A DNA stretch of 54,592 bases, the filler included, from Streblomastix strix (taxonomy: Eukaryota): the NCBI GenBank assembly GCA_008636045.1. It is 2 parts of 2 records of this genome, joined end to end, with 100 filler letters (N's around TTAATTAATTAA, not from the genome) between each part and the next. Parts side by side here need not be neighbours in the genome. Positions count along the whole stretch, not along the records: positions 27,380 to 54,592 come from SNRW01000148.1; 1 more part is not named here. One strand, given 5' to 3'. The notes beneath the pieces were generated by a model. The model saw only the letters and a program-made list of their open reading frames with translations. It was not told where the DNA came from and did not search any database. A program made the translations under genes and the position numbers. Below are positions 19,814-54,592 of this stretch, in pieces. How positions within the stretch are numbered: the first letter of the stretch is position 1; each line of letters begins with the position of its first letter.

Positions 19814-20001
19814 TGTATATAATGATAAAAAGTTGAATTTATATAAAAACCCAAAACGATAAATTTTAAAATCATATTTGCTTGAACATTAACTGTTTTT
19901 ATTATTTTTCTAGGGGGTGATTTTACTCCCTAGCGTGGCCCGATGATTCATACAAAAGTATATGCGTCAATTCGTCAAGCTAATTCAGCCCATCAACGTT
20001 T

Positions 20002-20397: not shown

Positions 20398-20505
20398 TTA
20401 TTATAAAATAAATAAAAAATAATTAATGGCCTAATTAATTAACTATATTAATGCATAGGTGTTAGTTATATATATAAATAAAAAAATAAATAAAGTTTAA
20501 TTATT

Positions 20506-23333: not shown

Positions 23334-23372
23334 TTATATTCAATAAAAATAAATAATTAATCTAAACAATTA

Positions 23373-23567
23373 CAGTAGAACTCGGTTAATTCGTACGCCG
23401 TTTAATTCGTACCTCCGCTTAATTCGTATGTTTTTTTTGATAAATAATTAGAGAAAAAGATATTTTTTGGAAAAATATTTCAAAATTAAATAGGAAATAC
23501 GAATTAAATTTAATTCAGATTCACATTTTCAGAAAAAGTCACCCTGCGAATTAACCTAGTTCTACTG
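23373..23567. mobile_element. pogo-type MITE (195 bp) inserted in the viral element
   Basis: TIRs CAGTAGAACTCGGTTAATTCG ... CGAATTAACCTAGTTCTACTG, TA on both flanks, three tandem TTAATTCGTA motifs at the left end. Confidence 0.9.
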
Positions 23568-23569
23568 TA

Positions 23570-24795
23570 GAAGCATTTATTGATTGAACGAATAAAAGCA
23601 TGCACCTAAATTATATGTTAATTACATCTTTAATGCCCATGATGTTGTTGAGTCGGTAAACATTCAAATATCTCTAGTTACTAATGCTCCAATTAAAGTC
23701 TTTTGCCTTGATGCTATTGAAATAAGAAATACAGTTGTTGGTGGTGTTGGAGGAGTTATGGTGTTATCGATATTTCCAATTGTGCAACCATAAGTTGATG
23801 ATGAAATATGGATTTATGTTTTTGGTTGAAAATCAATCATTAAATGAAAAAAATTACCTATTCGAGCAAGTTTTAAATAATTGAATGTAATATTAAAATT
23901 TAAATTAATGATTAAGTTTATTATATCTTCTACTTATACTCCTCCTAATGAAGATAATAATTCATAATCTTCTATTTTCGAATATGCATCAATTTAATCA
24001 GATATATTTATTTTTTCATCGAGTAGGGCATCGACTTCAGTTTTATTGTACGCATCAATTTAGTCAGTAATATTCAATTTTAATGCTAACATCTCATCAT
24101 CTTCTGTCTTTGAATAACTATCTATAATATCTGCAATATTTGCTTTAAGGTCTAATTTTTCGTCTGTTTCTGTCATCGAATATACATCAATTAGCTCTGT
24201 TTTATCAGTTTTCAATAATAAGAGTGTATAATCTTCTGTTTTCGTGTAAGCATTTATTTAATCAAATATATTCAATTTATCGTCGAGTAGGGCATCAACT
24301 CCAGTTTTATTGTACGCATCAATTAGCTCAGTTTTATATGCCTTCAATAGCAACAGAGCATCATCTTCTTATTTAGTGTATGCATCGAATAAATCAGAAA
24401 TATTTAATTTTTTATCTAACATTTCATCAATTTCTTCACGATTATAAGGTTCTGGTGCTTTATTAATAATATTTATTAAATTTTCAATATTTTTGACCTT
24501 AATAATTAAGCCAATGGTATTATATCTAGTCGAACCATAAAGTATTCAGTTATGATTTAGAATAACATCAAGCATACATAAATCTCCGTCATTTTATAAA
24601 ATTATAGTAACTGGGTCATTTTCATGGCAGAAAACAATTTTTTGTTTTATTTACTATTTAAATATAGCACTTATAATGCTGTTCCCTGATCTAGTTATTA
24701 CTCTCAAATACTCGCTCTAGGCAAAGATATTGAGTTTTTTTTGCTGTTAATAAAATCTAAATATGTTATTTTAGTAAGATCGATGATCTATTCAT
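23570..24795 (-). pseudogene. Fibre/spike-like protein with eight 22-aa (66 bp) repeats and a C-terminal beta-rich head
   Basis: Repeats at ~23960-24452, e.g. AYTKQEDDALLLLKAYKTELID / AYNKTGVDALLDDKLNIFDQIN / SYSKTEDDEMLALKLNITDQID / AYNKTEVDALLDEKINISDQID. N-terminus in a shifted frame; 3' end abuts the MITE. Confidence 0.6.
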
Positions 24796-24899: not shown

Positions 24900-27100
24900 C
24901 AATTTCAACTCATGATTGAAGTGGTAATATGATTTTTTCTCCCTTTTCTGGATTTGAAAGGGTTGAAGATACAAGTTATCCATTTAAGAAATGAACGTGA
25001 AGCATTTATCTGAATCACTTGATTGTTAATTTTTTCGCCGTTTTAGCCAATTTTGTGCAATTGAACCTGTAATTTTTAAATATTAAAATATATTTATTAA
25101 TTATATTAATTAATATTTAAATTGTTTTCATACTACAAAAACTTATACTGGTTATCACCGCCAATTGCACGGCTTGCAATCAAGTCTGTCTCATTTTAAA
25201 AGAACTTTATCAACGAATCAATTGATGCTAAGCCATCCTTTGGGAGGCTCCTATTAAGTAGCCGTTAAAAAAACCGAATGCACTGTCGCATTCGTTTTTC
25301 CCATGAGATGGGATAAAGAAGTTTAAATCAAAAGTCAATCCTGAATTAAATTTTAATTATTCATTGTTTAATTAGAATGTTAGTTGTTCATTATGGAAGT
25401 GTGGCCCACAGTCAGACCACCACTTCACATAATTTATATTCTCAAAGTCTTGATCCGCTAAAATTTATTTAAAACATTTTAATGTGATGGATGCAGTATG
25501 TGTTAGGACTCTTTAAAATAATGTAAATACTCTCTTAAAAGTTTACCCTTACGTGGGACAAATGTGGCAGACAAAGGAGATGCAGCTTACAGGAAGTTGA
25601 TCGTAAAATTCCTTTCTCTCTTATTCTTTTCTCTATGGAAGCTTAATATGTTCCTTTTAGTCTGCAATAATCACTGCGTTACCTGGTTGAATGTTATATA
25701 TATTAGAATGCATTTGGTCTCGTTATTCTGCAGCTTATCATTTGTGCAATAGATACATTTAATAAAATGTTTTTCTGGTTCCTTGTAAATCATTTACAGT
25801 TTTACCTTCTTTATCAATTGCATATTTCAATTATAGAGCTGTATGACATATCTGGCATAAATCAGTACGATTCTTAAGTTGCTTAAAAAAATATTTCTTT
25901 CTATAGAAATTAGTTTCATTCAACGGTATTTTAAAAAAAATCATATTAATCATATAATGTATTTTACTCTTTGGACCGTAGCAAAATCGTTTTTCTGATA
26001 TAAATTAATAGTCGTCAATAAAGCACTCATTTGATTCATCAGGAACTTAGTTATAACGTCCACTTTGTAATAATTGAATGAATTGATGCGGATGTGAAGG
26101 TGAAACTGTAATAACTGTTTTAACTTATATAACAGGCTGTTGGAAGTCAGAATCGACATTGAGTGATGTTTGAGGTTCGAAAGAAGAAGTCTTATTTTCA
26201 CTCTATGTTTCAGTGATGGAGGTACAATCATTACTTTCAGTGCAGTTCTCTCCATATCTCCATGATTTTGCTTTTCTTCCTTTTATTTATGCAAGAGGAG
26301 ATGTTTCTTCAACTTATTTATCCATTAAAATTGAGGCATTTATATTTATATTATTTGTTTACTGTTGTTCTTATGATAAACTTTGTTTAACATCTTTAAT
26401 CATTTCTATTAAATCCATTTCTTACGATGGAATTTATTTCTTTGCTCATTGTTTACTAGATTTGATTAATTAACCCCTTAAACCTTTTCTTTATTTATTT
26501 GAATCTTTCTTATTTTATGTTTTAGTTTATTTAAGATCCAAATTATCTTTTTCGTATCCATCATGTTTTAAATCATCACACATACAATCTAACATTATTC
26601 TCTATTCTAATGCTCTCTTTTCTTATGTCATAAACTTTTAGTGATAATAATTTATTCAACTCTCCAATGCTTAATCTTCAATATATTCTTCAGTTTTTAC
26701 TAAATGAAAATAAAAAAATTTTAATCAAAATTTCATTAAATTAACAGAAACCTTTGTAAAAACTCGCATCTGCTGCTTCAACTGTTGTCATTTAATCTGT
26801 AATTCCTTTTTTTTTGAAGAATTTCACCTAAATTATAAAGTTACATCGAATAATTTTAACAATTTAAGAGAAATTTGTATTTCATTCATACCGTCCGAAT
26901 TATGTCCATCCGATGATTAATATGAGTTATTAACAATTATTGAATGAATAATCTTCAACTGATGGCAATCTAACGTATCTCCATTGATTGGAACTGATGT
27001 GTTTCTCTTTGTACTCCCATAATCTTCCTTCTATAATCGTTTTTTTGCTACTCTGTATTGAGCCCTTGGAGTAGTAGGCAAAAGAACCCCACTGCCCTAT
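24900..27100 (-). mobile_element. Sola-like DDD transposase gene with introns, probably degraded
   Basis: In order: RTDLCQIC (~25850), NAVIIADQKEHIKL..EFYDQ.PVSC (D1), VKWWSDCGPHFHN (D2, ~25410), FIPSHGKNECDSAFG (D3, ~25290). GT-AG introns at ~25068-25133, ~26700-26751 and ~26828-26891. Ends approximate; TIRs not identified. Confidence 0.6.
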
Positions 27101-32400: not shown

Positions 32401-35065
32401 TATATTGTTGCTAGGTATTATAAATGAAAATGATTAATTGATGCAAATTTGAATTTGAATAACTATTTAACTTATTATTTTAGGAGAAGAGCAGAGAAGA
32501 CAAACTCAGCTATTACTGCCTTAGAATTCTTAAGACATGTGAAGAGATCTGGGGTTTGAATAATGAAAAATATGACATTTTCACTTATTATCTTTTTATA
32601 TATAATTAAAATATCAATAATTAGCATATGGTTGCCATGCTTAAGAAGTATCGATTCACAGTCATTTAAGCAGAAAAGTATATAGTTGAGTATCATAAGT
32701 ATGTTTCATAGAATTGAAGTGACTGAAATAAGAGAAAACAAGATAAACAACTTAAAGAATACTACATATTAATTGTTATATTTTATTAATTTTTGCTCTA
32801 ATCATATTTTTTCTTTCTCTTAATCACATTATTTAATTTTATGTTATAATATATTTTATAGAATCACAATGTGTAGAACAGAACTTCTACTTCTTCAATT
32901 TGATAATTATTGGGAAAAGAAAATTTAAGAAGTGTATTTTATTTTATATATAATTGTATAATGAAATAATTTTATTTATTATTCAATTGTATATTTATAA
33001 TTCAAATTTAATAGGATGTTAGAAGTGAATTAAAAAGATTGATTGACTTATGTGATGGTATTAATAATACAATATATTTTTATAATAAATTTATGACAAC
33101 ACCTTTTTCATTAATTTATATTAAATTGATTTTATTTAGGAAATCCCTAAAATGTTCTTCGTAAATATTTGAATAGTGTAAAAACAAGAACTGTAGAAGA
33201 AGTACTATAATATAAATTATAATTATTCGTTTATATATTTTTAAAATTTTTATTTCTCTCTATTATTTTATTTTTAACCTTAACAGCTAGCAATATTAAA
33301 TGGAGGAGGAGAATTGCCTCCATAAGGTTAAACATTATTTATTACTTAATTTATGTAATAATAATCATAGAAATATTGGATTATATTAATTATTTGTTTT
33401 TATTAATTTATTATACAATATTAATTAGAAGATATTTCAATACCAGAAGGAGGTTAAGGAATTGGAGGGAAACCAAAGAGATTTGAAGTATTAACTAATA
33501 ATAAATATTTGAGATTATTATTTTTATTCAGAATTTCCAATAAAATGACAGTTTTATTATTCTTTAATTATCATTAATTATAATAACTAAGGTTTGTGGA
33601 GGTCCAGAATTTATCTAATGGATAGCTGTTATGATTATTTAGTTGTAATTGAGGTAATTATTTGAAATTTAGATATCATATATATATAAAGAAAATATTA
33701 TACTTTGCATAATTGTTATTTGTTATTTATTATAATAATATAGTCGTCTTACAGCAACTGCTTTAGCTTAACTTCAGTAATCATAATAATCAAGTATCAA
33801 ATAATTATCTATATTAAACATATCTATTAATATGTTTTTTTATTATTTCATTATTGATATAAATAAATAGATAATTTATAAGAGAGTAGATATTAATTAA
33901 TTTAATCATAAGTAGCTTCTCAATTTACTATTCCAAAAAGGTTGGTATTTCAATGAAATATTTAGAACGAATAATAGAAGAATAAGAATTTCCCTATCTC
34001 TTTTTCTAATTTTTAAAGATGATAAAAATATATTACTATTTGTTTATGAATAGAATTCCGTCCTTTCCAGAGAAACTTAGAGTAAATTTAATTAGAGAGA
34101 AACTTGGATAGCATAGAAGAAAGTATTTAATTCTAATATTTATTTATAAACAAGATATAAATAAATAATTAACTGCTATTACTATTTATTATATTCAGGC
34201 ATGCATCTGGTATTGTAGAGATGGAATACCTTGAAGTATTAATCTTAGAAATTTTTGAAATATTTAATAATATAAGTGCATAAATTTTTATTCACATTTA
34301 TTATTATTATTCATTCTCGTCCATATTTTTATTAAATTAATATTTTAAATGTTATAAGGATGAATTTTTGAATGATGCAGATAAAAGAATGAAAAACTTA
34401 TTTAGTGAAATGGAAATGAATTCTATTATAGAGGTTTGCTGTTCATAATAATATTTATTTGAATAATCATTCACATTTTATTTATTGTTATAGAAAGCAA
34501 TTAAAATTCTTTTAAAATAAGAAGTTGCTCCATAATCATTCATGTTTACTGGAATGTAAACATTATTGCCAATATTAAGGTGTATTTAAGAATTTATATT
34601 TAATAAATTATTATTGTATTTATTTTAATTATTGTATGTATTATTTTCTTATTAATTTATATTAGATTAATGGATTCCCCTCTAATTCCATATATTACAA
34701 TTCCTATTGTAAAGCCAAAACCAGAAAAAAAGGGTGATGATGATGATGACGATGATGATGATAAAAGTAAGAAAAGTGGGGATAGCGATAATAATAATAA
34801 TAAAGGAAAAGACAATGACAGTGAGAAAGATAATTAATAAAATGCAGATGAAAATGAAAATTTATTGATCGAAAAAGATAAGGAAATTAAAAAAGATGAT
34901 GATATAAAAAAAGATGATGATAAAGAAATTGATAAAGAGAAATCGTTGAAATAGTAATAATCCGTAAGAAATGTTAATATTGAAGATGATAAAAAATCTA
35001 TAAATTCAAAAATGAGTAATCAAAATACTTAACGAGTATAGAAAATAGACGGGGAAATGAAGTGA
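29414..35065 (+). CDS. Large multi-exon hypothetical protein (Gln/Ser/Pro-rich low complexity, coiled coil, acidic C-terminus)
   Basis: About 20 GT-AG introns; long exon ~30018-31512 with Q runs encoded by TAA/TAG; later exons such as MLKKYRFTVIQAEKYIVEYHK/ITMCRTELLLLQFDNYWEK. In-frame TGAs at 30493 and 31765; terminal TGA 35063-35065. The ATG follows an AG and could be an internal exon start. Confidence 0.7.
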
Positions 35066-35595
35066 TTTTCATTATTAAGTTGATATTTGCTTTATTATCT
35101 GTTTATATCTAATAATTCATATATAACATAATGCTTCTTTTATTTTATCTTATTTTTCATTTCTTTTATTTTATTTCAAAAGAATGAATAAATTATATTA
35201 AATCAAATGATTTGATCTCCATTATTTAAAAAGGTTAATTTTTACTCTACCATGATATCAAATTAATAATTGAATAAACAATTGAGATTGTATTGCATTT
35301 CAAAAATAAATTTAATTTATTGTAAACATGAAGAAAACAAAAATTTTAATGAAAGAAAAGTTGATTTTAATAATAAAATAAAATGGTGATTATTAATTTT
35401 TGAACAATATTAACATAAATTAAAATTAATATATAAAAATAATATTTGTTGTTCATGAAATATAAAATAAAATAAATTTTAATAAATAAATTTATTAGTA
35501 AGAAAAAGATATAAGAACAAAATTTTACAACAAAAAGTCAGTCCAATTAAAGATGTAATGAATCTAATAATTCAACTTTCATTTATTCAATTTTA

Positions 35596-38500
35596 TCATA
35601 ATGAAGAATTAGTGTTTTTCAATATATGTATATCAAAGCGTTTTTGCATAGATAGAACATCATAATCAAAAAATAAGAAGCAGCCACTTCTCACAAACTA
35701 ACTAAATCCTTCATCAAGAACTACAACTTCTAGTTCAGATGATTCTTTCATCGAAGAAGAGAAAATATCGGTGTATTATAGATATTTCATTTGGGATGAT
35801 TGAGTTAATTGATCATGTATGTTAATATTCAATACATCATTATCATCTTCTTAATTCGTAATTTGTGTTTTTTATGAAGAATAGGGTAAATTTGATCTTA
35901 TTTTTGATTCTTCATCTTAACTTTATAATTATTCTTTGGATTTATTTAATTGAGAGGATTTCTTACTATTGAGATTATTATTTGATTAAAAAAATTCGAA
36001 TTCAGGGAGTAACTTTGATTTAATCATCTTGGTTTCTTCATAAGTGTTTTTATTCACTTATAAATTATCTATTTAACTAACATTTTATAAGTCTTATTTG
36101 TAGCTTTAATGATACATTGTATGAAATATATCATAAGGAGGATATTAAGGATTAAATTCATCAATAATGTTTATTTCATTTTTATTTGTATGTATATCTG
36201 ATTAATATAACAGTGAAATTCGAATTATAGGAAACTAAGTTGCGGTTGATAGGAGATGATTTATTGACGAGTCAATAAAGCAACAATTTACAAAATCCCA
36301 TGCGAACCCATTCATGTGAATTCCAGACACTAAAATTGTGTTATTATAGAAATTATTTGGTGGTAAAGGTAGATCAGGATCATACGGAAGAAAATTTATC
36401 CCAATCAATGCGTCTTCAAGATATTTAATTGGCTATCTCAATAATTTATTTACTTTGTTATTTTAATCAATGCTAAGGAAATGCTTGATTTTGTGAGAAA
36501 GAAGAAATGAAAAGTTTTTCTCTTACATCTCAACAAAATGCATATGAGCTTGGATTTTGAAAGAATATATAACCGATGCTGGTGAAAGAAAGAGGGAGAG
36601 AGGAATAATATGTGAGTTTTAAGCATCTGGATTCATAATCCAATATTAAAAATATTCTTCTTTCATACGAATAAATGTTGAAAAGTCATTTATGCTCATA
36701 TTTAAATGCTTTGGAACTGGTAATGAAGAAATAAATTATTTATTTATTACTCCTTTTCTATCCATATAAAATGGTGATAATTAAGGAGTATATATAGTTT
36801 GAAAGTCATGATTGTAAAGAAACATAATTTGAACTATAGATTATGTGAAAATCTATGTTGATATTATAAAAACATTATGATATTTGATTTCTTCTAACAT
36901 AAGTATGTCCAATAATTGTTATTTTGATTCGATAATATGATCATGTAATTGTTTTATTAACTTTTCAGGAATTCCAAGTGAAATTTATTTAATCAGTTAA
37001 ACAGCATTTATGATAAAATTTTCTTTAAGATTTTTAGTTACTTAAGAAGGTCGAGCTTATTATTCTTATGCTATTTCTTGAGAAAGACGTTGAAGTTATT
37101 ATTCTAAAATTGATTTTGCAAGATTTGTAGATGATTCTTCTTATGTTTGAGACAAAATAGATAATGAATAAGATTATTAAGGTTGGTGTATAATACTTTC
37201 CATTCCAGAACATTTCTCGTATTTAGTCCAAAATCCGCAATTATCTTATTTTCTTACTTAACGGATTACAAGACTTATATCATTTAATAACCGATTAGAA
37301 TTTTCCAGTTCTGCTATTTAATTAATTGAGTTTTTCAATCCCAACAGATTACAAGGATTTATAAACTTGGGGAAGTGCAAATGAATGTAATTTATTATTT
37401 GTTATCTAGGAAATAATTTACCTTTCATAAATTATGGAAGTAAAAAAGATGCTTCTTCATTATTGGATATTTCTAAGTTCAATATATTAGTGTTTAAAAA
37501 ATCAAAATTAGTTGAAAATGATTGAGTGATAAAATATATTTTGAATAGATTTATGATTATTTCCACTTCTCGCTCATTAAAAACTGCAGCACGAGCAAGC
37601 TAGTGAATAATTGTTGTTCTTAAGGAGAGTAACCATGGCAGATTCAAAAAAGCAACATTATCTCTATTCAATAAATCAAACTATTCACTTTCTTAACTAG
37701 AAGTTTAAATGGAAGATTCAGAAGTGAGATTTGTTTTTTGAATAGATCTATTTTGAATTGTTTAATTAAGAATAGATGAAAATGCAGATTATTATGATTG
37801 ATTGAAGAATTAAAAATCACAATGGATGTTGTTTTATTTCTTAAAGGAAGGATTTTTCTTAGTAGAATTTATAATTTTTGGTATGATGAGGTTCTGGTGG
37901 GAAATAGCTATAAGTAAACTATCAAGAATAGATATAAATAAAGATTGTGAATATGTTTTTGGAGAAATTGTAGTAGATAATTTAGGATTTTCTATATTTG
38001 ATGCACAACATATTGGACCAGCAAGTGCTGTGTTAAACAATAGCAGTTATATAGATCGAAGTCGTAGTATACTAAAAATAAAACATAAAGCAAAGAGAAT
38101 TCTGCCCCATAAATCTGAAAGTTATTGAGATTCAAATGCTTATCTATGTTATTGACCTCTTTAATCAAAACAAACACTTTCCATATTTTGAGGAACCCAA
38201 GATATTGTACGAACAAGAACTGAAGAAAATTATAAATCAATATCATCCATTTGTGGATCAATTGTTTAAGAAATTGCATGATAAAATGATTTTGCCATTG
38301 CTTGATTTGTTCGTGCTATAAGAATAAAGTGCGTTGATGGAAAATCTTTTAATGGATAAATATAATCTATTTTCATTGTTTTTGAAATGAATGATGTATC
38401 AGTCATCAATGAAGCATTGTTTATTTATTCTGATGATTTTAAATATTAATTGTTATGAGTCATTTACCAAGCCTAAAGTTTTTTCCTAATCTTTACTGCA

Positions 38501-41500
38501 GCACTATCATATTTTTCATTATTTTCATCCATATATATTTATGAATTATCTACGACAGTGGGAAAATGATCTCTATACACTGGAAACGTTTTTAAAGAAT
38601 ATATATAATGCATCCACAAGTTAATTTATATTAAAGACATATTATTGTGGATATGATTAGTTTGTTTCTTTTGGTGATGTTATTAAATCTGTTGAATTTA
38701 TTCTTCAGATTATTAATTATTTTTTTAAATTTAATCATTTTCATGTTTATAATTTTCTTATTATTCATTGGTTTATAATTTCTGTTGTAAGTTATGTGAT
38801 GTAAATTGTAATGCTTTTCTTATATTTATTTTATTTTCAGAATTTTAATTAATAATTTCCATTTTTCTATTTCCATTTTTTTCTTTAACTTTTCCTTTCT
38901 TAAATATATTATAATATCTTTTTTAATTCATTGAAACTGATGGATGAATAAGACTGAGAGGCATAGTTCTGTATAAGCGAAAATATTTTGAGGATATAAT
39001 ATTCATAATGAATTTTATAATGACTTAAAATGACGGTTAATCGATCCAGAGGTTCTTATAACTGTTTGATAGGTTTGAAATAGATAAATTGTGGAAGAAA
39101 ATAGATATTTCTTATAAATCAGACGCATTAACAAGTAATGGGGGGTTTATTTGATACTTTTCATATTATTTCTTTTCAATCTATGGGTTTTAAATGTGAT
39201 TATATTTTGAAATGGATAGATTTGGTTTGCAAAATAGTTCCTTTTGTTAGTTTTATTCAAAAATTCTTTTCATTTTGATCTCAGAAGATTAATTATTTGA
39301 AACTATTGAATCTGGTGATGATGATTATTACTTGAAATCAATACATTATCTATAATCTGAATTAGAAAAGGATTATTGAAATTGGTTAGCAATTTTAATC
39401 ATTGAAAATGTTGCAGCTTCAGACATGGATACATCACCAAAAGTACCACTTGCATAACTAAATCCGAAATTTTGCAATAATTTGAGGAGTTGAATTGGTT
39501 TATGTGATTTTGAAGGTGTTTATGGAAGATTAAGGAATAAATATTGAGACATTTGAAAGTCATTTGGTTGCTTTGCAGAATGAAACGGAGTAAATAATAA
39601 TCCTTGTTCTAAAATATCTTCAGAATGATCATTTGCATTTTCATCTTATAATATATGAATGTATGGATTATTATTGAACAACTCTGTAGGTGAGAAAAGA
39701 ATAACAGGAAAATCTGGAGACGATGTTTGAATAATGCGTGAAAGTCTAATCTCTAGTGGAGTGTATATTGGAAATAAGGATCCTAGAGTGAGCTCAATAA
39801 AATGTTAAATTGACTAAATTGTTCTATATGGAAATAACTGTCTAATAACAATAACTTATTTAAAAGGTGATATTTGTAAATTCAGTTCATTTGGAATGGG
39901 TAAATAATAATTAAAAAGTTTCTTTAAAAATGATATCCAATTGTTCATATCTTGCTTGAATGACTCTAATAAATTAATATTATCACTTAAATTCATTTCA
40001 TTGTTTTGTGAAAATGTATTTTGGTTGTCTTTTATTTCATTTATATTTTCTTAAATGGTTTAACTTACGATAGTTTATGGTTTTTAAAGTTTCATTTATC
40101 TGAAAAATAATTGATTATCAATAAATTACAATGTTCTTGATATATTTTATAAAGGATATTCTGATGATCCTATTACAATTAGACTTGGCTAATCTTTTTG
40201 TGAATTTGATAAAATGTTTGTTTAATTAGGTAGTTTATCAGAAGATGAATCATATTCCTGAATATTTTGTGAATTCTAAAATAATTTTTCATGATTTTAA
40301 TATATATTCTGCTTTTTATAATTTTAATTTAATTGATCATTTTAGCCCATTTTTGCTTAATTAAAATCTTATAAACAGTCAATTTCATCTAATATTAGAG
40401 CAATTTTTGTTTTGCATATATGAAATATATAAGAATTTACTTCCATTAATAAATTTGATGTAGGGAAATAAATGTCATCTTGCATAAGAATTTCTATTGC
40501 TGGTTAAGTATCACTCCACAATACAAATTTCCTTTTCCCAAGTTCATTTTCAGATGCACGTTATATAACAATTTCACATTCTTTAACTTACTTATCCTTA
40601 TTTATATTTTATTATAAATTTGAATTATTTTTAAATTTTGAATTAGATGTTTTTAAATTAGATGATGCGTTTAAATCTATCTATTAAAGTTCAAAACGCT
40701 GCATCATATTAAAAGCAACAAAAAACAAAAAAATTTGTCGAGTATTCCTTAAAGGTTCAATATCAATCGAATCGATTGGTGAACAAAGAATTGCATTTGT
40801 CACACGATCTATGAATGTATGTGAAATAGATGCAAGGAGTTATTTCAGTTATTAATTTGGTATTTATTGGAATAATAAAGGTATTGAATCAAGTTTTATA
40901 TTGAAATCAAATATACTTTTGGTTAAAATTTCATTATTCACTTCAAATTAATCCTCTTCTGAATCAATTTCATATTCATCTGTGATATTTTTCTCGTATT
41001 CTTCCATTTCATTCTTAATTGCACAGGTATTTTTAAAGGAATATTATTACTATAAATTCAATTAGCTTGCATGTGAGTTATTGGATAATTTATTAAATCT
41101 CAATTTATGTTTTATTATCTTTCTTTTACTATCATTAAAATTAAATTTTGTTTTTAATGTGTATTAAATAGAAAAATAGAGATATGTGAAGATCATTCTG
41201 GCAGAAGGAAGAGCTGAATATGTTATTTATGATTCAAATATATTCGATATCAACAATGAAGGAAATAATTTTAGAATATCTTAACTTTAAATGCACTATA
41301 ATACTGAATATACATCAATAACTGTACAAGAAAGTGGTGAGAGCATTTCTATATCAGTTTCAACCGTATATAATTCAATCAAATTACTTTTAATAATATT
41401 ACCCTAATCCTAATGAATATTAATCAATGATTGGCATTATTCGAAAAATTTTAAAGATATTTGCTTTCTCATCTCAAATAAATATTACAAAAAATCTTCA

Positions 41501-44500
41501 ATGTGCTTATCTATTTATAATTTTGATTTTAAAATGTTTTGAAGTAAATCTTAACGTTTTGAAAGTAACCCAGGTAGAATCCCTGGTGCTAAAATTGAAT
41601 ATGTTATCTATTATCTAAACGCATTTGTTTGACCAAATGGAGTCCAATTAATGATTAATGACTGTTTATATAAATATGTGTCTATTATTGACTGATTGGT
41701 ATGTGGAATCAATGTAAGACTATCCCTAATGAAGAAAATAAGACGAAATCCTGGTTTTATTTCAATTTTTTATCCAAATACTAAAATATTTTGTAGTGGA
41801 CAATGTAATTGTAGTTCAACCATAGTGTCAATAAAATTGAAAATATTTTCTTGTTAAAATCCATCAAATTAATTGTGCATATCATCTAATTCCAATAGAA
41901 GTGGGAAACCAGAAAGCATAGCATCAAAAGAAGAAAGAATAAAATTGTTTGAAANNNNNNNNNNNNNNNNNNNNNNNNNNNNNNNNNNNNNNNNNNNNNN
42001 NNNNNNNNNNNNNNNNNNNNNNNNNNNNNNNNNNNNNNNNNNNNNNNNNNNNNNTCAATAAAATTGAAAATATTTTCTTGTTAAAATCCATCAAATTAAT
42101 TGTGCATATCATCTAATTCCAATAGAAGTGGGAAACCAGAAAGCATAGCATCAAAAGAAGAAAGAATAAAATTGTTTGAAATAATTGAAGAAACGACAAC
42201 AGGGCCTTAAAGTCGTAACCTATTTAGCACCCAGTGCATAGCAGTTCCAAGTGGATCAATGAATATCAATGGTTTATCAGAATGGATCATTGATATAGCA
42301 CTGCTTATTAATAGTGATTGTTCGTCTGGAGGCAAACCTTCGTGTAACTGTTACATTAATTATTATGGTCCGTGAAAAATCATCCAAATTGGCCGAAATA
42401 AAGGTCTGATTAATGTTGCATAATTTAAAGTTGAGTTATCTGCATGTGAAACGCTTCCATCATCTCCTACATCCAAGGCTCCATTATCAAAATCAATATT
42501 TTGTTTATTCGAAATTTAATTCTCATAATCAATCTATAACTAAGCAAATAGATCTTCATTTGCTTTTAAACTGGTATCTTTTGCCTAAGTCAGTGTTTTT
42601 TTGATTAGGTTAAAATTGTTTAATGAGCATAATTCTAATTATGAATTTCTTTCAACTTATGAATTTTTACTATCAATTTCATTTGAAGATGAATATGTAA
42701 CACCAATTAAATCTAGAATACATCGCCATCTCCGCATTGCTAGCTCCAATTCTTCAATTGGTAAAAGTCCATTGAAAATTAAATATGCTGCTGATAAAAC
42801 TGAATCTCCACGGCAATCCAATATATTTCGATTTAAAGCTAATAATTCTTATCTCCATTCAAAGATAAGGTGTGTAATAAAGGCTTGTGGATATAAAACA
42901 TCTTTTGTTATCATTATTTCCTAAACACTATTTTTATTCCATTCCTCTGTATTTGTTTCTTCATATTCATCTTCATTAGAGCTATTTTCATTTTCAATAT
43001 TTTTGTTGTCAGAAGAATTGTTTTCATGAGAATAATTCTACTTTGAAGGAAAATCATTCAAATTATTTTTCTTATCATTTTTTATTTATTCTTTTACTTT
43101 TTTATCAGAGAAGTTGATATCAGAAAAGTAAGGCATATAATTGAATATGATATTGTTTATTCGGTCAAGAAGATCTTCCAATTATTTATAAGTTTCTTTT
43201 ACTTTTTATAACTATTATGATAAGAATATTTATGCTTCTTTTTCTTTACGAATTGTTTCATAATATGATAAAACTCATTCAGATATATATGATCGCATTT
43301 TGTGTAGTTAAACAATTGAAATTATAAAATGATATATATTTGATAATGAATGACTTGTTCGTTCAATTTATTCTTCTATAAAGTCAGGCATATTAAAATA
43401 AGGTTCAATAAGTTCTATTTACTCTTCTGAAAGTGTATTTTCATTAAATTCTATCAAATTCTTGACGAAATTCAAATTTTGAAAAAGCCTATATGATTCA
43501 GTGAAAGAACTTTTTAACACAAATTATGGAAAGTTTTTCTAAACTTGATATATAGCTTGCGATTAAGTATTAGCTTTGTTTATAAATAAATTTGAAGATC
43601 ATGAAAATTTTTCAGTTTAGGTATGATTTGTAGATATGTCTTATATATTATCATGCCTTTTCATTTTAGTCAATGAAATAGACCAAGAACTTGTTACCAT
43701 TTCAACTGGTTAAAGTGGTTTGCGCAATAGAATCAATAGTATATCAAACATCCGCTTAATCAAACTATTAGGATGGGGCAATTTCCTTAGAAAGGACAAG
43801 TCTTATGGTTATATATTTCGCATTTCAGAATTTAAATAATTCATTTTTGAATTTTCCATTAATTCATTCCAAAGATTTTCCATAACTTGTAGGGTATCTG
43901 CAGTTTATTTTCTTATTATATTAAATTAATGATAAGCTTTTTAAAAATCATGAATATTTTGATTTAGTATCTCTGTTTTTTTTCTGATTTCAGCTACAAG
44001 ATTTTGAAAATTCTATTGTTCTCCTCCTTTTTCATATAGAATGTTAACTAATTAACGAACAAATACTTATTTTGTCACAACAGCTACATGAACTTAGACA
44101 AGTTTCTAAAGTAAAACGCGAAGTAATATCTATCGCCTCTACAATCCAACCATACGACTACTATAAATGTCTAGTACTGCTTCAACGAAGTTTTCAAAGT
44201 GGAATAAATGCAAGTAAAGAGCAATATGCATCTATTTTTTCATTTGCATTTATTTAAAATAGTATTAATAAGTCTCTTGAATTTATGCAAATATTCCAAC
44301 AAGGCCCCCAATAAATAAATCAACATCTGCTTTTCTTAGTAACCACTCTATCTATAATTTTGGGTGTAAATTTTAGATTCCCAGTGCATATCTCTCAGGA
44401 AATAGTGTTAGACGAGTTGGCAATCTCCCTAATCTTTATGGATCAGCATGTTTGTATATTCTTATATTTTCAATAGTTTCTTTTTTATCTTTTCGTTTTA

Positions 44501-47500
44501 TATCTTAATTATGGAATGGAATTAATAAATTTGTTAAAGTTTAGCTTCTTTAATTTTTCAACTTTCTTTAGCTATTTTAATTTTTGGTTAATTTTTTAAT
44601 CGATGAGTTATCATTAGTAATGCAATTTTAAATATTTTCTGTAATGTCTGGAACTGAATTTGCTATTTTGAAGATATTCATCAAAGTTTGCCCACAAGTA
44701 GGTTTTTTATTTTCTATATTTTCTGATTATTACATAACACTAGACACAGAAGCACAAGCAGCAAGAACAGAAGCTATAGCTTGACAAGAATTTAAATCAG
44801 ACATTTTTTATATTTCCGATTCAGTATTATCCTCTTTGTAATACATACCCAAAATACCTTGACGAAGACGAGTTTCAAGCAATGAATTGTAGTTATGTTT
44901 TTCATTTTGGATTGAATAATGTTCTTCAGCTTAAAAAGGATTAATTGGTTAAGCTTTAATTTCATTTTCTTTTAATTTGATATTATAATCAACAATTTTT
45001 ATATTAATGTTGTTTATTGATAACAAATTCGATCCAAAAGCCAATTATACCATATTTTAAGTATTATTTGTTGAAGGTTATTTTAGATTGTTGATTTTCT
45101 CTTCTTAAGTTCTCTTTCTTGTTTATTAAAAATTCTTATTATTTATTGTGCTAATATCTTTTCTTTAATTTATTTTTACAATTTTATTTGTTTGTTATTA
45201 ATTTTCTTTATTGAATAATTCATGTTATTAACTTTTATTATTGATTAAAATACAAATATCTTTCGGCTTAACTTTTATATTCTTAAATTAATTTTTATTG
45301 ATTATTTTTTTCTTTATTTTAATAACTTTATTGATAATTTGATTTAGATTAGGAAGAATAGGATAAATTCTAATAAATGGGGGAGGATGTGCAATTCTAA
45401 TTTTATCATAATATGAATCTTAATTAGTATTATTTTTATTGTTTTATAAATCATTAGATATTTATTAAATGGGAAATTTTGACATTTTAATTAGACTATT
45501 TTTTTATATTGTTGGATTAACTTTCTAAAATGTAGTAGTTGATGGAATTTTATTCATCAAAACTTTTGATTTATTCCCAAATGTACTTTCGCTATTATGA
45601 GATATTTAAGGGTTAATTTGTTCTCTACGTTTCCTCCTTTATGACGCCTTTTAATCGCGTTCTGCTTCAAACATCTGTTCAATAGTCAAAGGAAGGATTT
45701 TTTCTCTTGCAATATTTACCAATGTGACTAAAGGTACTTGATCTATCATTTCAAATTAAAAGAATCGTGAAATCCATGGAAACCATGAGATTCCAGGAAT
45801 TGTAGCTTCAACTATATATTTTCCATTCTAATAATAAGAAAAATCTTTACCAATTATACTTGCATTTATTAATGCTTATTATAATAGCTTTTGATGATCG
45901 TTCTATTTTAAAATCTATTCATCTTATCTCTACAATAACAATGCTATATTTTCAATATTTATATTAATATTATTATCATTTATATTAAGATCTGTTATGT
46001 TTTTGCATTTTAATAAAATATTATTCAGAAAATTTTTTTCTTTCATATCAAACTCACTTATACCATTAAATATATTTTCAAGCTAATTTCGTCGTTGTTT
46101 CAATGCTTTTACAAAAAGTTCAGCATGAGTTATTTCTTGTGTTCTTGCTGAAGATAAATAAATATCTGCAAAAAATAAAAAACGAATATTTTCTTCCAAT
46201 CTTTTTGAAATCCATCGCATATTTGTTGCATCAACAAAACCTAATCCGCGTGCCTCAGATAAAATAATACTAATTTCCTAATCTGAAAATACCCTAAAAA
46301 ATATTTTTATAGATTAAAAGTGTAAATAATCATATAAATATGAAAAATTATATAGAAAGTTAAAGCAAACATTATTGGTGATGAATCTGAAGTTAGAATT
46401 GAGAAAATGATATTACTTACATCCATTTCACTTAATTCTTTCTTCGAATCCCAAGATCTTGAACTTATTATTATGTTTTATTCTTATAATACTTATTAAT
46501 CACCAAATGTATCATAATTATTTACAACTTTTCAACTTGGCAATTTAATACTATTTATTTTTGGTAAATTAATATTATTTTGATGAGTGAATGAGGAAAT
46601 TGATTCAGAAAATTTAACATCTAAATCTTATTCATATTTTGGAATACCAGATTGAAATGATAGATTTAAAACATCTTACATAATTAATGCAACTATACTT
46701 TTTGATTTTGCAAATATAGTTTTCAAAATGATGATTTTCAATTATTTAATAAATTCTGAATAAGTCTTAGGAATTATCAGGTTAATTAACTAAAATTTGC
46801 AAAGAGCAGCTACTAATTATATGAAGGAGCTATTAAGTGAATGAGGATAAGATATTATACATGTATGTTAATCTTTGAGCTTTTAAGCAACTCTATAAGC
46901 TTGGACACCTAAATAATCTAATATAGTACGTGGAAGCATTTATAAATATTTTGAATGGTGAAGAAGTTTGCCAAGATGACTTTAATCATCCTCAAGAGCA
47001 ACAACAAAGTTATGATAATCTCCAGAGTCAAATTCTTCAAGTCTAATTTCTTCCTCTTTTTCATCTATATTTGTTACAGGAAGCCTCCAAATAAATTCAA
47101 ATAGAGCAGTGAAATTCAATTCTTCAGAGCTATCAAGATATGCAGCAAGATGGCAAGCAATTAGATCAAAAGAAACTTTTTCTCGATTTGTGAGGCGACT
47201 TGCAAAAACATTCCTACAGCATCTTACCCATAATATAGAAATTGATAGTGATTCACTCAGTTCATGTGGATCAAGGATTGCATTCTAACTGAATAACAAG
47301 ATGACTTTCAAACAACTGGAAAAATGAAGAGGTATCTAACCAAGAGTTGTGAAAATAGAAAATAGTTTATGACGAAGAAAGTGACAATAGTGATTTGTTT
47401 AATGTGTAATATTTGGAGTAAAAGAAAGCAGTTTGAAAAATATGTATGTGAGAGATGCTATTCTTCCTAAAGTTGATATACTCCATTTCCGAGCTTATTA

Positions 47501-50500
47501 TTATATTATAAAGCTACTCTAAATGATTGGAATTTGAAGAGATGGATTATTTCTGTATGATTACTCTTAATTATTAATTTCATCGTTATGTTCGTAATTT
47601 TTAAGCCAATTTCTCATTCGCTTTGTAAAATATTATTCTGCAATTAAATATTACTCCATCGGAGTCTTATTCCTAAGAGATAAACACGCAAAATGTCTGG
47701 TCAATCAATGTGGTAATAAACCTAAGAAAGGATTTTGAATTATACAAATAAAATCTAGTCCCTCTTGTTAATCTTAAAGTTTGGGAGGATCATTCATTAT
47801 AATTCGCTGTTTACGTTCAGAATATGCACGCAAGCTCTCTAAGATTTCCAAATTTAGTGGAGGATGAAGATCAAAAACCAATGAACCTTAAATTAATTAT
47901 ATTTTCTTTGTGCTTTTCTATTCTCTTAAATTACAATGTGAATATAATTAGGATTAATTGTGGGAACCACTGTGTGATGATGAGTGTTTTGAATATTAAT
48001 GGCTTGAATTTCTTTCTTTCTGTTATGAGTTATCTATGCTAAATTTTGAAAATTAATTTTAATATGAATTTATTTCTTCTTTATTAATAACTATTTTTGA
48101 TTAATAATCACTATTATTTTCACAATAAGATGAATATTCAGGAGAATCAAATATCATTTGAGAATAAATTCTTTTTTATTTAAGATGAACTTAACGAAGC
48201 AATGGGTTTAATTAATTTGAATAACTTTATATTTCATCAAGCTTAGATTAATTATAATTGATTGAATTCTTTTCAAACTGAACTGGAGAATTTTTTTTGT
48301 AAGAATGAGTTAAATTATTACTAATAAACTTTTATAATTTATTACTATTATGCTATTTTACCTTTATGAATTAATTTGTGAGACCATTATTATAAATTTC
48401 TTAAATATTTTTATGTATACTGTTAAAATAGTCTATTGTTCTCCACATCATTAATTAAGTTGTTGTTGAAAATATTGGAACATTGAAAATAATATTACAT
48501 CTATTGTTATGTTGAAATTTAGTAAATGTTAATGGGGTTGAAATAAGATTTTAAGTAATTCGTTTTGTTAGTTCATAATCTTCATATCCAAGTAATACCG
48601 GTCTTTGTACAGACCTATATAATGCAAGAACTTGATTAAACTGCATAAATTCCACATCGATGTTATTATATCCATCATTCACCTTGCTTTACATAATAAA
48701 ATTTTGCTAATCCATAAAAGTTTATTATTTTGATTTTTATTCATTTATTTCATCTCGGTTATAGTCTTATTTGTTTACCAAAGATAATTATTTCTAATTA
48801 TTTCTATCAACATTTAAAATATATTATTCTTCAATCTTTTCAATATCATTTTATTAGTCTGATTAAGACTATATTTTGGAATTGTTATCAAGTAAATATT
48901 TCATATTGTTATTAACAACTTAATTAATATCATTTTGTTTCGTTGCATTTTCTGAAGAATAATTTGAAAAAGAATGTATTTTTTCAAGATTATAATTTAT
49001 TTATGTTTATTTCTTTTCAGAAACTGCATCTTCTGATGTTTAAATAAATTCATTTATATTTTCCCATTATTGAGACTAAATGTTCACAAAGTAATTGAAA
49101 ATAGTAAGAATTGTTCCTTATTCTGGTTGAATGCCTAGAAAAATTTGTATATTATGAATATCTCGAAGTTCAATTGGAGTTGATTAATTGGGAACATCCA
49201 AGTATTTATGCAGGTTTGGATGATGTGGTATGTTTACAGAGTCAAGCTTACATAAAAATTGTGACAATTCACTTTCAAACGAAACATTTGCAATTGCATG
49301 TCCTCCCATACCCCACATTATAGAATATAAAGCAGTCTTTCTTACAATTGATTAAAAATCCGAAAATTTTTAATTAGCATCGTCATTCTATTATTAATTT
49401 ATTTATACTAATGATGAGTTAATATTTTAGTTTTAATCCACATTTATATCATACTTAATTTCTAATTAAGTAATTTCAATTGTTTGATTATCTTCTTCAG
49501 AGGTTTTGACTTTCCTTTTTTCTTTGTTATGACCAAGAAGAATTGGCTGATGCTTCCGTTCTGAATTTCTAGTGAAAATAGTAACAAGATTATTTATGAA
49601 ATTTGGAATTATATATTTAATTTATGCTAAAAAAAGTGTTAAAACATTGGAGAAGTAAGAATGCCCGATCATTTCAAAATGAATCTGACTTTTGTTTGGA
49701 TTTATATTCCCATTATTAATGTCTACTCCGTGAAAAAATCGATAAATAAAGTATCCAGTTTCACTCATCCAATAGACTAATAATGATGCAATTTTATTTA
49801 TTATTAAATAAATTATTGCACAAACTGCTTCATTCTGAGCAATATCAAATAGATGTGAACACAAGAATTTGAAATTTGCTAAGATAATCTTATATGTTTC
49901 ATTGAAGAGTATTGCAATATCGGAATTAAAAGGATGAATCTCTTGCCTTAATGTATTATAGAAAGGAAAAGAGATAAATTATGAAGATATTCTTACAAAT
50001 CTCAAATTTTCTAAAAGTTAAGAAGGGATGCAATCTAATGAATCCATTTCAAGAATTAAACGACAATTTGAAGGTAGAATGATTCTTTTAAGATTTGGAA
50101 GTACAAGCCCATGAAATAAATTCTTCACAACTCGAGTATCTTTAAGATTTTATTCAATATTCCTTAATTTGATTTAATCAAATCTCTTTTATTATTTCCT
50201 TTTCCATTTCACTTCATTACGAAAGACTTGTTCTATTTATTTTAATCGAAGTTTCTGTTAATATTTTTCATTCTAAAATCTGAATTTAAATGTTTACTTA
50301 TTAAAAACTCTATATTTTAAATTTATCTATTTATTAAATTATTTTGAATTAATAACGTTTTGAGATTAAATTTCTTGATGATTATTTGAATTATTTACTG
50401 GTTCTACTTATAAGCTTAAATTTAAAGTACTAGGGGAAATATGTAGATCAGTCTATAAAGAAATTGCCTTATTATGTAAAGGTTTTTTAGATGTTATATG

Positions 50501-53500
50501 ATATCGATTATGTCTATGAAAATTACATTTTTTATTAGCAATTAGGTTGAATATAGAATTTAAATCATCCACGCTACCATTTCCTCGCCAATGAAATTAA
50601 GCAGGTGTATTAAATGAATTTTTATTCTTCATAATGATATTGCTTATAAATTCCTCTTCAAGGGCAACATCTAATCTGGTGGACATTCGCAAAAAATCTT
50701 CCATTCAAGAAAGAATTCAGTTAGTAATCTTATAATCTTTTTCTGTTTCAATAAATCTGGCCTTTTTACCAAAATTTTTCCCTTTAAATATTGCTGAAAC
50801 ATCTTACATTGGAGTTGGTGTGAAGTTCTTACATGAGCCGAGATCAAGAATAATATACACATCTTCAATTTTATCAGATTCAGAATTATAATGAATTTTA
50901 TCTAATAACTTATGTTGTTTTTAATATAAATTTTTATCTTATTATTAATGTTCATGTTTGTCTATTGATTTTTATTATCTCTAATCTTATTTAATTTTTA
51001 TATTTTTTCTTTTTATCAATTCTGGTTCAGCAATCAACAATTAATCATTTTTGAATTTATTTGGTTATATATCTCTATAGATCTCCGAAAGTAACTAAGT
51101 GAATATTCCAGGATAAAATTCTCCAAAATTCATTTTTTCTTTTAAATAATTTGATATTTCATTATCTTCCTCTTAATTGTTATCATTTTATTCGTTTTAT
51201 TTATTCAATATAACACTACTAGATGTTTCATAATTTAAAATTATTTAATTAAAAATTGTTTTGTTATCTTGTTTTATTGTATTTTTCTTCTCATCTATTT
51301 AATTTGTAACAAAAGATTAATTCGTAGTATTCTATAAAGCAGATGTTAACTATTATTATTATTTAAGAAATTGCTTGACAAAATTGTTTTTTGGACCCAT
51401 CGGATTATTTGCTTCACCAGTTAAATTTTGATGGATAGATGCAAATGTTCCAAAGAATTGTGAAAGGTTTATAGCTGCAGGATTTAAATGAATCACACGA
51501 GTTGGAGTTCCACATTCACTCCGAGCGAGAGCCAGCAATGATATCAAAGTTGACTTTCCACATCCAGCTGGTCCCACTATAGCAACTGGACTAATTGGAT
51601 TAATATGTCCAATTTATATATCTCCACACCATCGAGAAGGTGATAAAAGTTCATGTAACTCCAAAGCTTTTTCTACCATTGTTGAAACAATTCCAGTATG
51701 TTTATTAAATCTGTTTATTGATTCAAATAATTTTTTCGAAAAAGACTTGGAATAATCATCATTTCCAACCTATACCAAAATATCTGACTCTAAACATGAG
51801 TTATCTTTTTCTTTAGATAAAATAGTTTAATGCTCACTATCTACTAGAGGTTTAAATGTAGTATCTGTTAATATAATTTATTTATTTTCTCATGAGAAAT
51901 TCGTAGATAAAGTTGATGATTATGCTTTTGTTTAAGAAATAATTGTTTGATTTAATGAAACTAATGGGTGATCAGTCTTTTTACTAATAGAATCATTATC
52001 ATTAAATAAATTACGAGTTAATCTTTAATTATTGTCATTGATATCAATCATATTCATATCAAGAGAAAACTTTTTATTATTATCTCTTTAATTATTAACA
52101 CTTTGAGACTATGATTTAATATTATTTAGAGCCATAATTATTTCAAATTCTTGAAATCTTGAGATATTTTTTAGATTGCTAAACTGACAAAGTTAATGTG
52201 CGCTCTATTCAATAAGAGAATTGAGAAATGAAGCTTTGTGTAGGATTCCTATTTAATTTTCATTAAATGTCAGTTGCGAACTTGTAATTTTTTTCAAATT
52301 TGAAAAAAGTCAAGCTATATAAGTTATTTCTTATTTCACAAACTTGTCAAAGTAATAATCTTCAAATTGCAAAGATTCTTTGCCTTTCCCATTAATGAAT
52401 TCTTCACTTATTTCCTTTTCATTTTCTGATATGGTATTTTGCTTGAACAATTCTTTCAAACTAATTTCATATGCTCTGTTATATTTAAGAAAACTATTCA
52501 TTACTGCAGGTCCAGATTCTGGAAATATATTAGTTATCAAAATACCAAACAATTATTTTTCTGATGGAATAAGATAACTTTTCATTTATTTAAGCAAACA
52601 ATTGCATATGGCTGTGCTTTCAATCAAAAAAAGCAACTTTTCCTACTTAAGAGTATATTTCATTTGATTTAGTATATCGTTATGTACATTTCCAGATTTA
52701 TTCAAAATATTCTAGGTAATAACATAAGGTTCGGAATTTTACCCTTAAAAATATGTATTATAATTCAAACTTTCAATTTCATCATAATAAAACATCCTCT
52801 ATTATATCCATTTCAGGATTGGGTTTTAAAATAATAATAATGAGTTTTAAAGCAATTCTGTTGTTTTAGGTTTAAAATATCGATTTATGGAGTAAATAAA
52901 ATATGTTCATGCTAGTAGTCCTACCGAATTTATAATACTGCGGATCTGCCCGTCATGACTTTATGTCAAAATAGCAAAATTATCAAGTAATGACATAACC
53001 CGTTTTGCAAGAATTTATGAATAATAGAATCCGTTCAGTAAAAGAGATACTTAAAGATCATATTGAGCCACTGGTGGTTATATGGTCAAATTCCTAAATC
53101 TTTGTCTTAAAGAAACAGGTATGTCTTCTGTGCATAGCTTTGCATCAGTTAAAATGAAAAAATGAAATCCAGATATAATACTGGTGCTGATATTTTCAGC
53201 TAAATGGCATCTGGAGAGTCCACTGTATTATGCAATAGCAATTTTGTCTATAAGTTTTCCAACCCAATTTAATAATGAATGGCTCATTCTAAATGCTCCT
53301 TTTAAGCACCCCCATGTTCCACTGCCAGCAATACCTTGAATATAAGGTATCAATGTGTAGAGAGGATGTGATTCTTCAGTTATGTCAAGAACAAATATAG
53401 TTCTTCCACAATAATTTGCCATCTCTCGCACACGGTCAAGCTGAACTGCTTTTGATTAACTTTATAACATTGTAAATACAGATATTTGCTGTAGCTAGTT

Positions 53501-54592
53501 TGAATTAAGATCATTTGATTATACTGATGAAAAGTTAGATGCTATATTTTTAGCCATTTCATTCCAAATTTCTGTCGATGCAAGTTAGTAATAATCAAGA
53601 TGAGATATTTCTCCTTATGCTTTTGTTATTTGGTGTGATGGAATTGGAGCTGGAAAGAAAGTGCTCAATGTTGACAATGATACAGATAAATAATCATATC
53701 CATATGGTATTCATATATTTCCAAATATAACATGTGTATCCTATGTAGATTAGGATTCTGCTTCATCATATCAATTAATTTTTATTCTGTTTCCTTATAT
53801 AAAATCATTCCAATTTTAGTCTTAATATCCATTTTTATCATATAATGATGAATTATTATTATTATTTTTTAGATTTGATTTCATTTAATCAGATTATTGA
53901 AGTTAAAATTTACGAATTGCATTTATTAAAGGCTAGTACATTTCTAAAATATATTATTTTGCGTATTGATTACCAGGAATATAAAATGTTGGTACGTACG
54001 TTGTGAAAAGGCCAAGGCTAGAAGTTAATTGCAATTATCAGAATTATTTAATAAGGTTTAATTGCGATAATCCTCGAATAATATTTAGAGAGGGTAATAG
54101 GGCAAGGATTCCATGTTCTGCTTTTATTCGCATTAGAATATTATCTGAACTTTCAATTATTGCTATTTGTAGCGAATTTAAAAGATGCAAAATTTCATCG
54201 TTCAATCCTTTTATTTCAAATGCAAGATCTGAGATATATTTACTTATTCTATTTCCTCTATCAAGAATCTCAGACATATTATTATAATGTACTTTATTAT
54301 TGTATAATATTTATAGATTATTTATTTCATACTATTAAATAAATCTTTTCTTGTTCCAATCTTCTTCTTCTTCCATCTCTGCAATAACAGCCAAATGATC
54401 AAGAATAATATTTGATTCCATGTTCCAATGTGCTGCAATTGTAAAGAAAACACCTTGAGAAATTGACGATCTCAGAAATGAATGACAATTAGGATGTTAA
54501 TTACGAACACAGGAAAAACAATAGAATTAATGTCTATACATATAATGTAGGTCATTTAAAATATTACCAGTAAATAAATGGAAACTGCAGTT
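35596..54592 (-). CDS. Highly divergent dynein heavy chain-like protein (motor domain; 5' part beyond the window)
   Basis: Motifs in order: PYGYDYL, GIAGSGTWGC (AAA1), GPAGCGKST and IHLNPAAI (AAA2), LVLPNLKRIILP..RLILE, MWGMGG, LTRHF, LWVRCCRNVFASRL, stalk IEPYFNMPDF, GDSVLSAAY, EGLPPDEQS, PLIFIDP, IKPGFRLIF (AAA5), VSGIHMNGFAWD, RSGCFLF. One intron at 46294-46370; 12 in-frame TGAs; terminal TGA 35596-35598. Confidence 0.9.
41828..42181. other. Assembly gap (N 41955-42054) with duplicated flanks
   Basis: 41828-41954 is repeated at 42055-42181; collapsing the two copies restores a continuous dynein frame. Confidence 0.9.

Follow-up and report, generated by a model that had tools for sequence, protein, structure and literature searches.

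Genetic codes without a dedicated stop codon are known in a handful of lineages (ciliates, Blastocrithidia, and Amoebophrya), in which UGA nearly always means Trp. In table 27 (Parduczia, karyorelicts, and Amoebophrya ex K. veneficum), UAR encodes Gln and UGA is found internally and at the ends of genes, with none internal near the end. Spirotrichs read TAA, TAG, and TGA as Gln, Gln, and Arg, and Peritromus reads them as Gln, Gln, and Cys (Chen et al. 2023, PMC10089648). Blastocrithidia combines UAR = Glu and UGA = Trp with UAA as the stop, a 4-bp tRNA-Trp stem, and an eRF1 Ser74Gly change (PMC12153298). The oxymonad Streblomastix strix is assigned to table 6, with TAA and TAG (TAR) read as Gln and TGA as a stop (PMC13002328, PMC1501061). 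A 2026 oxymonad transcriptome paper, in which codes were derived from tubulins only, gives only TAR = Gln and does not mention UGA or TGA (PMC13002328). Our literature searches turned up no description of UGA as a sense codon in oxymonads; in-frame TGA may be noted in the original publications on S. strix or in their supplements. Here we analyze 54,592 nucleotides (nt) of S. strix DNA (assembly GCA_008636045.1; the window), the minus strand of which carries, at positions 35596 to 54592, a dynein heavy chain-like gene with 12 in-frame TGA codons. We consider it reasonably probable that this dynein is translated through its 12 internal UGAs with insertion of a polar residue and that UGA also serves as its terminal stop.

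The joined gene model contains 6208 codons and is open at its 5′ end, at the end of the window (Table 1). It retains the domain order of a dynein heavy chain (linker-AAA1-4-stalk-AAA5-6), with Pfam matches to AAA_6 (E = 7e-11) and Dynein_AAA_lid in exon A. All 12 in-frame TGAs listed in a first-pass annotation of this DNA are present, with coordinates that referred to the last base of each codon and flanking translations that were quoted correctly. Ten are in one frame (54040 to 46534) and two in another (43601 and 43277). The accompanying statement that the frame is unbroken apart from the assembly gap needs correction: it shifts between 46534 and 43601, at a predicted 143-nt GT-AG intron. 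The GTAAGT donor at 46420 and the TAG acceptor at 46278 restore the reading frame, and the spliced junction can be aligned to homologues from Blattamonas. Coding-frame TGAs number 10, 2, and 0 in the three coding segments; the other two frames hold 49 and 125, 25 and 74, and 43 and 103. The base after TGA may be T, A, C, or G, confirming that there is no fixed read-through motif. The eight gene ends in the window that had been placed at TGA are all TGA; homology was used to test the dynein end, which matches.

An index-free HMMER search with the dynein model gave 48 matches, and the nine long best of these are Blattamonas nauphoetae proteins of 2842 to 6966 amino acids (aa), collinear with the 6208-aa model from the linker to the C-terminus (E values down to 3e-40 for exon A). 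These giant divergent dyneins (e.g., KAK2952531.1, 6782 aa) are the closest proteins to the Streblomastix gene; they differ from it in being only 20 to 28% identical over most blocks and in being deposited as uninterrupted proteins. The alignments cross the TGA sites at aa 294, 562, 761, and 2296 without gaps, and well-conserved residues come after a TGA ahead of the next ATG (51 codons after 53713, for example). Oxymonad homologues, TAR = Gln, a GC content of 26.3%, and matches in sequencing runs from termite guts support the oxymonad origin proposed at first; S. strix itself has a reported GC content of 26.6% (PMC10703272), and introns with GT-A-[AT]-G donors are a further feature in common with it. 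The sequence is thus that of a giant, divergent dynein heavy chain, and its source is very likely an oxymonad of the Streblomastix type. No dynein was matched in PDB searches with the AAA2 and AAA3 pieces, word-index protein searches with the dynein gave no match, and six ATG-to-TGA pieces of the gene were absent from the protein collection searched.

The TGAs are retained in other assemblies. An X1 contig (19,009 nt, depth of 24), which may be the source of the DNA analyzed here, spans 42060 to 54592 with 14 differences, no gaps, and no difference at a TGA. Run X2 comes from another study; its contigs, at a depth of 2 to 5, cover 3 of the 12 TGA sites and retain TGA at all three. The contig over 43277 has 0 differences in 208 nt. 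Those over 52312 (13 differences in 283 nt) and 52909 (4 in 151 nt) have none at the TGA among the 11 and 2 differences listed, and both TGAs sit deeper inside their contigs than the other listed differences do. Sequencing or amplification error was rejected on these grounds. Other X2 contigs, at 47789-48016 and 53385-53572, are ~83 to 88% identical, which suggests that the X2 sample also contains another Streblomastix-like lineage, less closely related.

Comparison of haplotypes shows purifying selection on the TGA-containing frame, in one gene and a small sample. Codon changes counted from the listed differences were 6 synonymous and 7 nonsynonymous for X1, 10 and 9 for X2 (20 of 25 differences being listed), 4 and 4 for a further X2 set, and 7 and 6 for a diverged X2 contig (the last two from a comparison with 40 of 156 rows listed, one intronic row dropped). 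Once the diverged contig is left out, the listed differences add up to 20 synonymous and 20 nonsynonymous changes, set against an expected synonymous share of 0.21 to 0.29 (P = 3e-5 to 0.003). The resulting omega is 0.26 to 0.40 among haplotypes that share the TGAs. Within exons, X2 carries insertions amounting to 6 nt at 46742-3 and 3 nt at 47950-1, and six single-base insertions lie within the intron; single unassigned contigs account for insertions of 1 nt at 47310 (X2) and 2 nt at 45301 (X1). This selection between haplotypes makes simple pseudogenization unlikely and leaves read-through as the preferred interpretation of the gene.

To ask which residue is inserted, we examined alignment columns with at least four residues among the nine Blattamonas proteins, a Trp column being one with 25% or more Trp. 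Gln ranked first at TAA (235 columns) and TAG (46 columns) in cross-validation, as expected if TAA and TAG encode Gln. With TGA entered as Trp, Trp columns made up 0 of 11 at TGA and 22 of 35 at TGG (P = 2.4e-4); with both codons masked, the counts were 0 of 11 and 21 of 35. The hydrophobic share was 0.11 at TGA, 0.72 at TGG, and 0.47 at nonconserved TGG (P = 0.015). The best-aligned TGA columns hold Ser, Gln, Phe, Pro, or Val (aa 294), polar residues (aa 562, 761, and 1296), or an invariant Arg (aa 2296). Leave-one-out column scores (5000 draws) were 0 for Trp, 0 for Leu, 0.0006 for Gly, 0.013 for Cys, 0.028 for Arg, 0.54 for Gln, and 0.58 for Ser; Trp, Leu, and Gly were rejected, Cys and Arg were marginal, and Gln and Ser were accepted. 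Mixture models with rough mutation weights placed Trp 3 to 6 log units below Gln or Ser, and the method recovered Trp, Gln, Arg, Ser, Gly, and Cys for their own codons. TGG frequency is 0.67% before and 0.68% after the last TGA, and TGA is therefore not substituting for TGG. The alignments thus point to a polar residue, probably not Trp, with the exact identity left between candidates: Gln or Ser is the best fit, and Arg is weaker but compatible.

These columns bear on the earlier proposal that UGA encodes Trp. The impression that several sites read naturally as Trp, including the AAA2 match, finds no counterpart in the closest homologues, where no TGA column contains Trp. The claim that TGAs occupy typical dynein Trp positions survives at 53771-53773 only, where Trp occurs in 6 of 11 distant canonical dyneins (taken from eukaryotic contigs within metagenome-assembled genomes [MAGs]), and not elsewhere. 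If aa 274 and 1292 are both scored as Trp, the upstream contrast becomes weaker (P = 0.15). The caveat once attached to 47705, that it aligns with an Arg position, was well placed, since Arg stands there in 6 of 6 Blattamonas proteins and 8 of 8 canonical dyneins.

The internal TGAs are biased toward the 5′ side (Kolmogorov-Smirnov P = 0.008), a bias not seen for TGG, TAA, or CGA, and no internal TGA lies within ~2480 codons (7.4 kb) of the stop. This kilobase-scale bias, seen in one gene, points the same way as the poly(A)-proximity model (PMC4967479; 10.1101/2022.04.12.488043) but extends over a far greater distance.

From the sequence we infer translation through the TGAs, the inserted residue, and its decoder alike. 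Ribosomes would read the internal UGAs and terminate at the last one. A pairing of U with G at the second codon position is a frequent misreading. By such a pair, the tRNA-Gln that reads UAA might misread UGA and outcompete eRF1 far from the 3′ end. This tRNA must exist and would be abundant (TAA accounts for 333 of the 6208 codons), and TAA-to-TGA changes, the largest mutational route (~37% of the flux), would be silent. We tentatively favor Gln because this route is the largest, the tRNA would be abundant, and the misreading is common. Next would come Ser or selenocysteine (Sec) through tRNA[Ser]Sec(UCA), which we think rather unlikely; Arg is somewhat more so, and mixed near-cognate insertion at tolerant sites is hardly probable. 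The only tRNA genes in the window are two for tRNA-Lys(CTT). A selenoprotein, with UGA read as Sec, was considered and rejected (no selenocysteine insertion sequence match in 34600-36200, fold z = 0.33, Cys fit P = 0.013); SelB and SEPHS are both recorded for S. strix.

Several points count against read-through of this kind. The support comes from a single gene. The homologues are paralogous and, at 20 to 28% identity, make the residue inference weak, and the mixture models place Gln, Ser, Arg, and random nonsense within ~2 log units of one another. Internal TGA is absent from a GH3 beta-glucosidase gene in the window (1112 codons) and from the annotated piece of an S. strix paralogue (1332 aa). 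The UGA-free zone of ciliates is reported to measure tens of nt, versus 7.4 kb here, and yeast UGA read-through inserts Trp, Cys, or Arg (PMC4967479). Taken by itself, the X1 haplotype falls short of clear significance (P = 0.03 to 0.14), the contig over 52312 alone has 3 synonymous and 7 nonsynonymous changes, and the X2 depth is low. The proposed mechanism also presupposes that second-position U-G misreading would be efficient.

The TGAs could instead be nonsense mutations in a pseudogene or recently relaxed paralogue, a dead copy within an expanded dynein-like family that has at least nine such members in Blattamonas. The polar columns fit a random nonsense spectrum (TAA, 37%; CGA, 10 to 19%; TGG, 9 to 18%) nearly as well as they fit Gln, and the AAA1 Walker motifs are degenerate. 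We nevertheless think this unlikely: omega is well below neutrality among TGA-sharing haplotypes, neutral accumulation of 12 TGAs would need ~600 substitutions (5%) whereas the only frame change in the model is the one at the intron, the exonic X2 insertions amount to 6 nt at one site and 3 nt at another, and decay does not predict the uneven TGA distribution.

For a code like table 27, with UGA decoded as Trp or stop through tRNA-Trp or converted to UGG by A-to-I editing, the precedents are strong: Parduczia, karyorelicts, and Amoebophrya (PMC4967479, 10.1101/2022.04.12.488043). Such a code also gains something from 53773, aligned to Trp, Tyr, or Phe in canonical dyneins, and from 50719, one column off a conserved Trp. 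The absence of Trp columns at TGA, the low hydrophobic share, the mixture models, and the TGA at an invariant Arg make it very unlikely; A-to-I editing to UGG fails because the TGA columns are not Trp. U-to-C RNA editing of UGA to CGA ahead of translation would leave the code unambiguous and explain the invariant Arg at 47705-47707 as well as the Lys and Arg among the residues at aa 562 and 1296. A set made up purely of Arg is a poor fit, however, and U-to-C nuclear editing is not known from metamonads. Moreover, Streblomastix cDNAs retain in-frame TAA and TAG (PMC1501061), which means that the change to Gln does not arise by editing; editing to Arg is about as improbable as Trp. Finally, several polypeptides might be made from the gene, by stopping and reinitiation, trans-splicing, or hidden mini-introns. 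An ATG comes immediately after the TGA at 50707 and would open a 999-aa piece, and weak intron candidates exist at 50719 and 50707. Nine other TGAs lie 15 to 70 codons from the next ATG, two have no ATG before the next TGA, and the TGA-to-ATG stretches contain conserved motifs, with gap-free alignment across four sites, making split expression the least probable of these explanations. In a search for frame-preserving introns, 10 of the 12 TGAs had no candidate, and hiding of the TGAs in such introns was rejected.

Read-through with a polar residue thus leads for the dynein, and with it the part of the original proposal that invoked the lack of a dedicated stop codon, on account of the oxymonad origin, TAR = Gln, the terminal TGA, the exclusion of sequencing error, and the evidence against a pseudogene; the Trp part does not stand. 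If so, the cell would likely lack any stop-only codon. More tentatively, the Streblomastix code as a whole may have no dedicated stop, with UGA read as Gln (or Ser) only when kilobases from the mRNA 3′ end, which we regard as possible but less than probable.

On sequence grounds, the locus works like an ambiguous stop/sense code that fails the table 27 Trp test. It shares with table 27 UAR = Gln, internal and terminal UGA (with none internal near the end of this one gene), and UGA rarity (0.19% here, 0.12% in Parduczia; PMC4967479), and differs in internal UGAs off Trp columns, the far longer UGA-free zone, and another supergroup. It is like table 6 of S. strix in TAA/TAG = Gln and in its oxymonad homologues, and unlike it in having 12 in-frame TGAs in a gene under selection. 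Like the spirotrich and Peritromus codes, it combines TAR = Gln with a non-Trp TGA read from alignments, with one site at an invariant Arg; unlike in those codes, most sites are not Arg columns and Cys fits poorly. With Blastocrithidia it has in common an AT-rich genome, no dedicated stop (likely so here), no preference at +4, and in-frame stop repeats after the true stop (here, in the dynein only), whereas the residues and the terminator are different (PMC12153298). If borne out, the code would be the first of its kind in metamonads, with a residue for UGA unreported in the literature surveyed. Short genes with high expression, among them those for tubulins, would not reveal it, and the public S. 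strix proteome would be truncated at sense codons. The system would also be a test of whether cells that have reassigned UAR are prone to losing fidelity at UGA, and of how eRF1 recognizes the genuine stop.

Table 1. Coordinates of the dynein gene and its in-frame TGA codons in the window
Feature	Position	Strand	Remarks
Exon A (linker, AAA1-AAA3 region)	46421..54592	minus	2724 codons, 10 in-frame TGA; Pfam, PDB dyneins, Blattamonas homologues
Predicted spliceosomal intron	46278..46420	minus	143 nt, GTAAGT...TAG, ~20% GC; accounts for frame change
Exon B up to assembly gap (AAA4, stalk, start of AAA5)	42057..46277	minus	2 in-frame TGA
Assembly gap, 100 N	41955..42054	.	Flanked by 127-nt duplicated overlap (41828-41954 = 42055-42181)
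3′ part of dynein gene	35599..41952	minus	2118 codons, 0 TGA, 12 TGG
Terminal TGA	35596..35598	minus	Matches C-terminus position of homologues; two further in-frame TGA within 27 nt after
In-frame TGA, aa 185	54038..54040	minus	Column N/D/G/K or aligned poorly
In-frame TGA, aa 274	53771..53773	minus	Blattamonas T/S (poor alignment); canonical dyneins W/Y/F; strongest Trp case
In-frame TGA, aa 294	53711..53713	minus	Within conserved FGxI-X-IPYG; column S/Q/F/P/V; Ser in S. strix paralogue
In-frame TGA, aa 562	52907..52909	minus	Column S/K/H/T/P/R/F/G; retained in other-study contig
In-frame TGA, aa 761	52310..52312	minus	Column S/T/D/K; retained in 95%-identical other-study contig
In-frame TGA, aa 901	51890..51892	minus	Low-complexity region
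In-frame TGA, aa 1292	50717..50719	minus	One column ahead of conserved AAA2 Trp; Trp only if one-residue indel assumed
In-frame TGA, aa 1296	50705..50707	minus	Column Q/A/K/T/I/L/S
In-frame TGA, aa 2296	47705..47707	minus	Invariant Arg of AAA3 P-x-R-L-x-R-H-F; R in 6/6 Blattamonas, 8/8 canonical dyneins
In-frame TGA, aa 2687	46532..46534	minus	Variable region
In-frame TGA, aa 3617	43599..43601	minus	Insertion in stalk region
Last in-frame TGA, aa 3725	43275..43277	minus	Column H/L/F/A; ~2480 codons ahead of stop; retained in other-study contig

In the Streblomastix gene, the AAA1 motif WGCFDEFNR is replaced by WGCLKGAFR, and no GxxGxGK was found ahead of the aligned AAA1 segment; with these Walker motifs lost, the predicted protein is likely motor-dead, i.e., a non-motor dynein-like protein. 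The family is expanded, with at least nine Blattamonas paralogues of divergent 6- to 7-kaa dynein-like proteins. The S. strix paralogue KAA6403757.1, a 1332-aa annotated piece on a 32.8-kb contig, starts and stops mid-gene and may be truncated at in-frame TGAs. Eukaryotic dynein heavy chain genes also occur as contamination on 25 contigs (L001-L025) of prokaryotic MAGs, one of which (L020) is open only under table 6. Scans of metagenomes (in the correct frame), viral contigs, and genome contigs (with a tRNA-Lys probe) found no related loci.

Elsewhere in the window, the GH3 beta-glucosidase gene (1270-4608) is bacterial-type and intronless, with 8 TGG codons; its best matches are bacterial or unnamed, at up to 46% identity. 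It is flanked (window 623-5491) by 757-bp inverted repeats that are 93.5% identical, each with a tRNA-Lys(CTT), and the unit is possibly a horizontally acquired cassette. A minus-strand open reading frame (ORF) at 25210-26445, presumably transposase-like but without a Pfam match, has one in-frame TGA at 25738-25740, which could reflect decay or a second read-through site. The region 12283-24600 holds a degraded Polinton/Maverick-like element with an rve integrase (E = 1.5e-6) and a weak terminase/ATPase-like ORF. An ORF split over two frames at 20506-21688, without a Pfam match, we take to be the probable capsid gene of this Polinton-like element. Endogenous viruses of S. strix have been reported (PMC10120064). 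An intron-rich SH3/protein kinase gene cluster occupies 5900-9010, with the kinase domain confirmed at 8381-8950.

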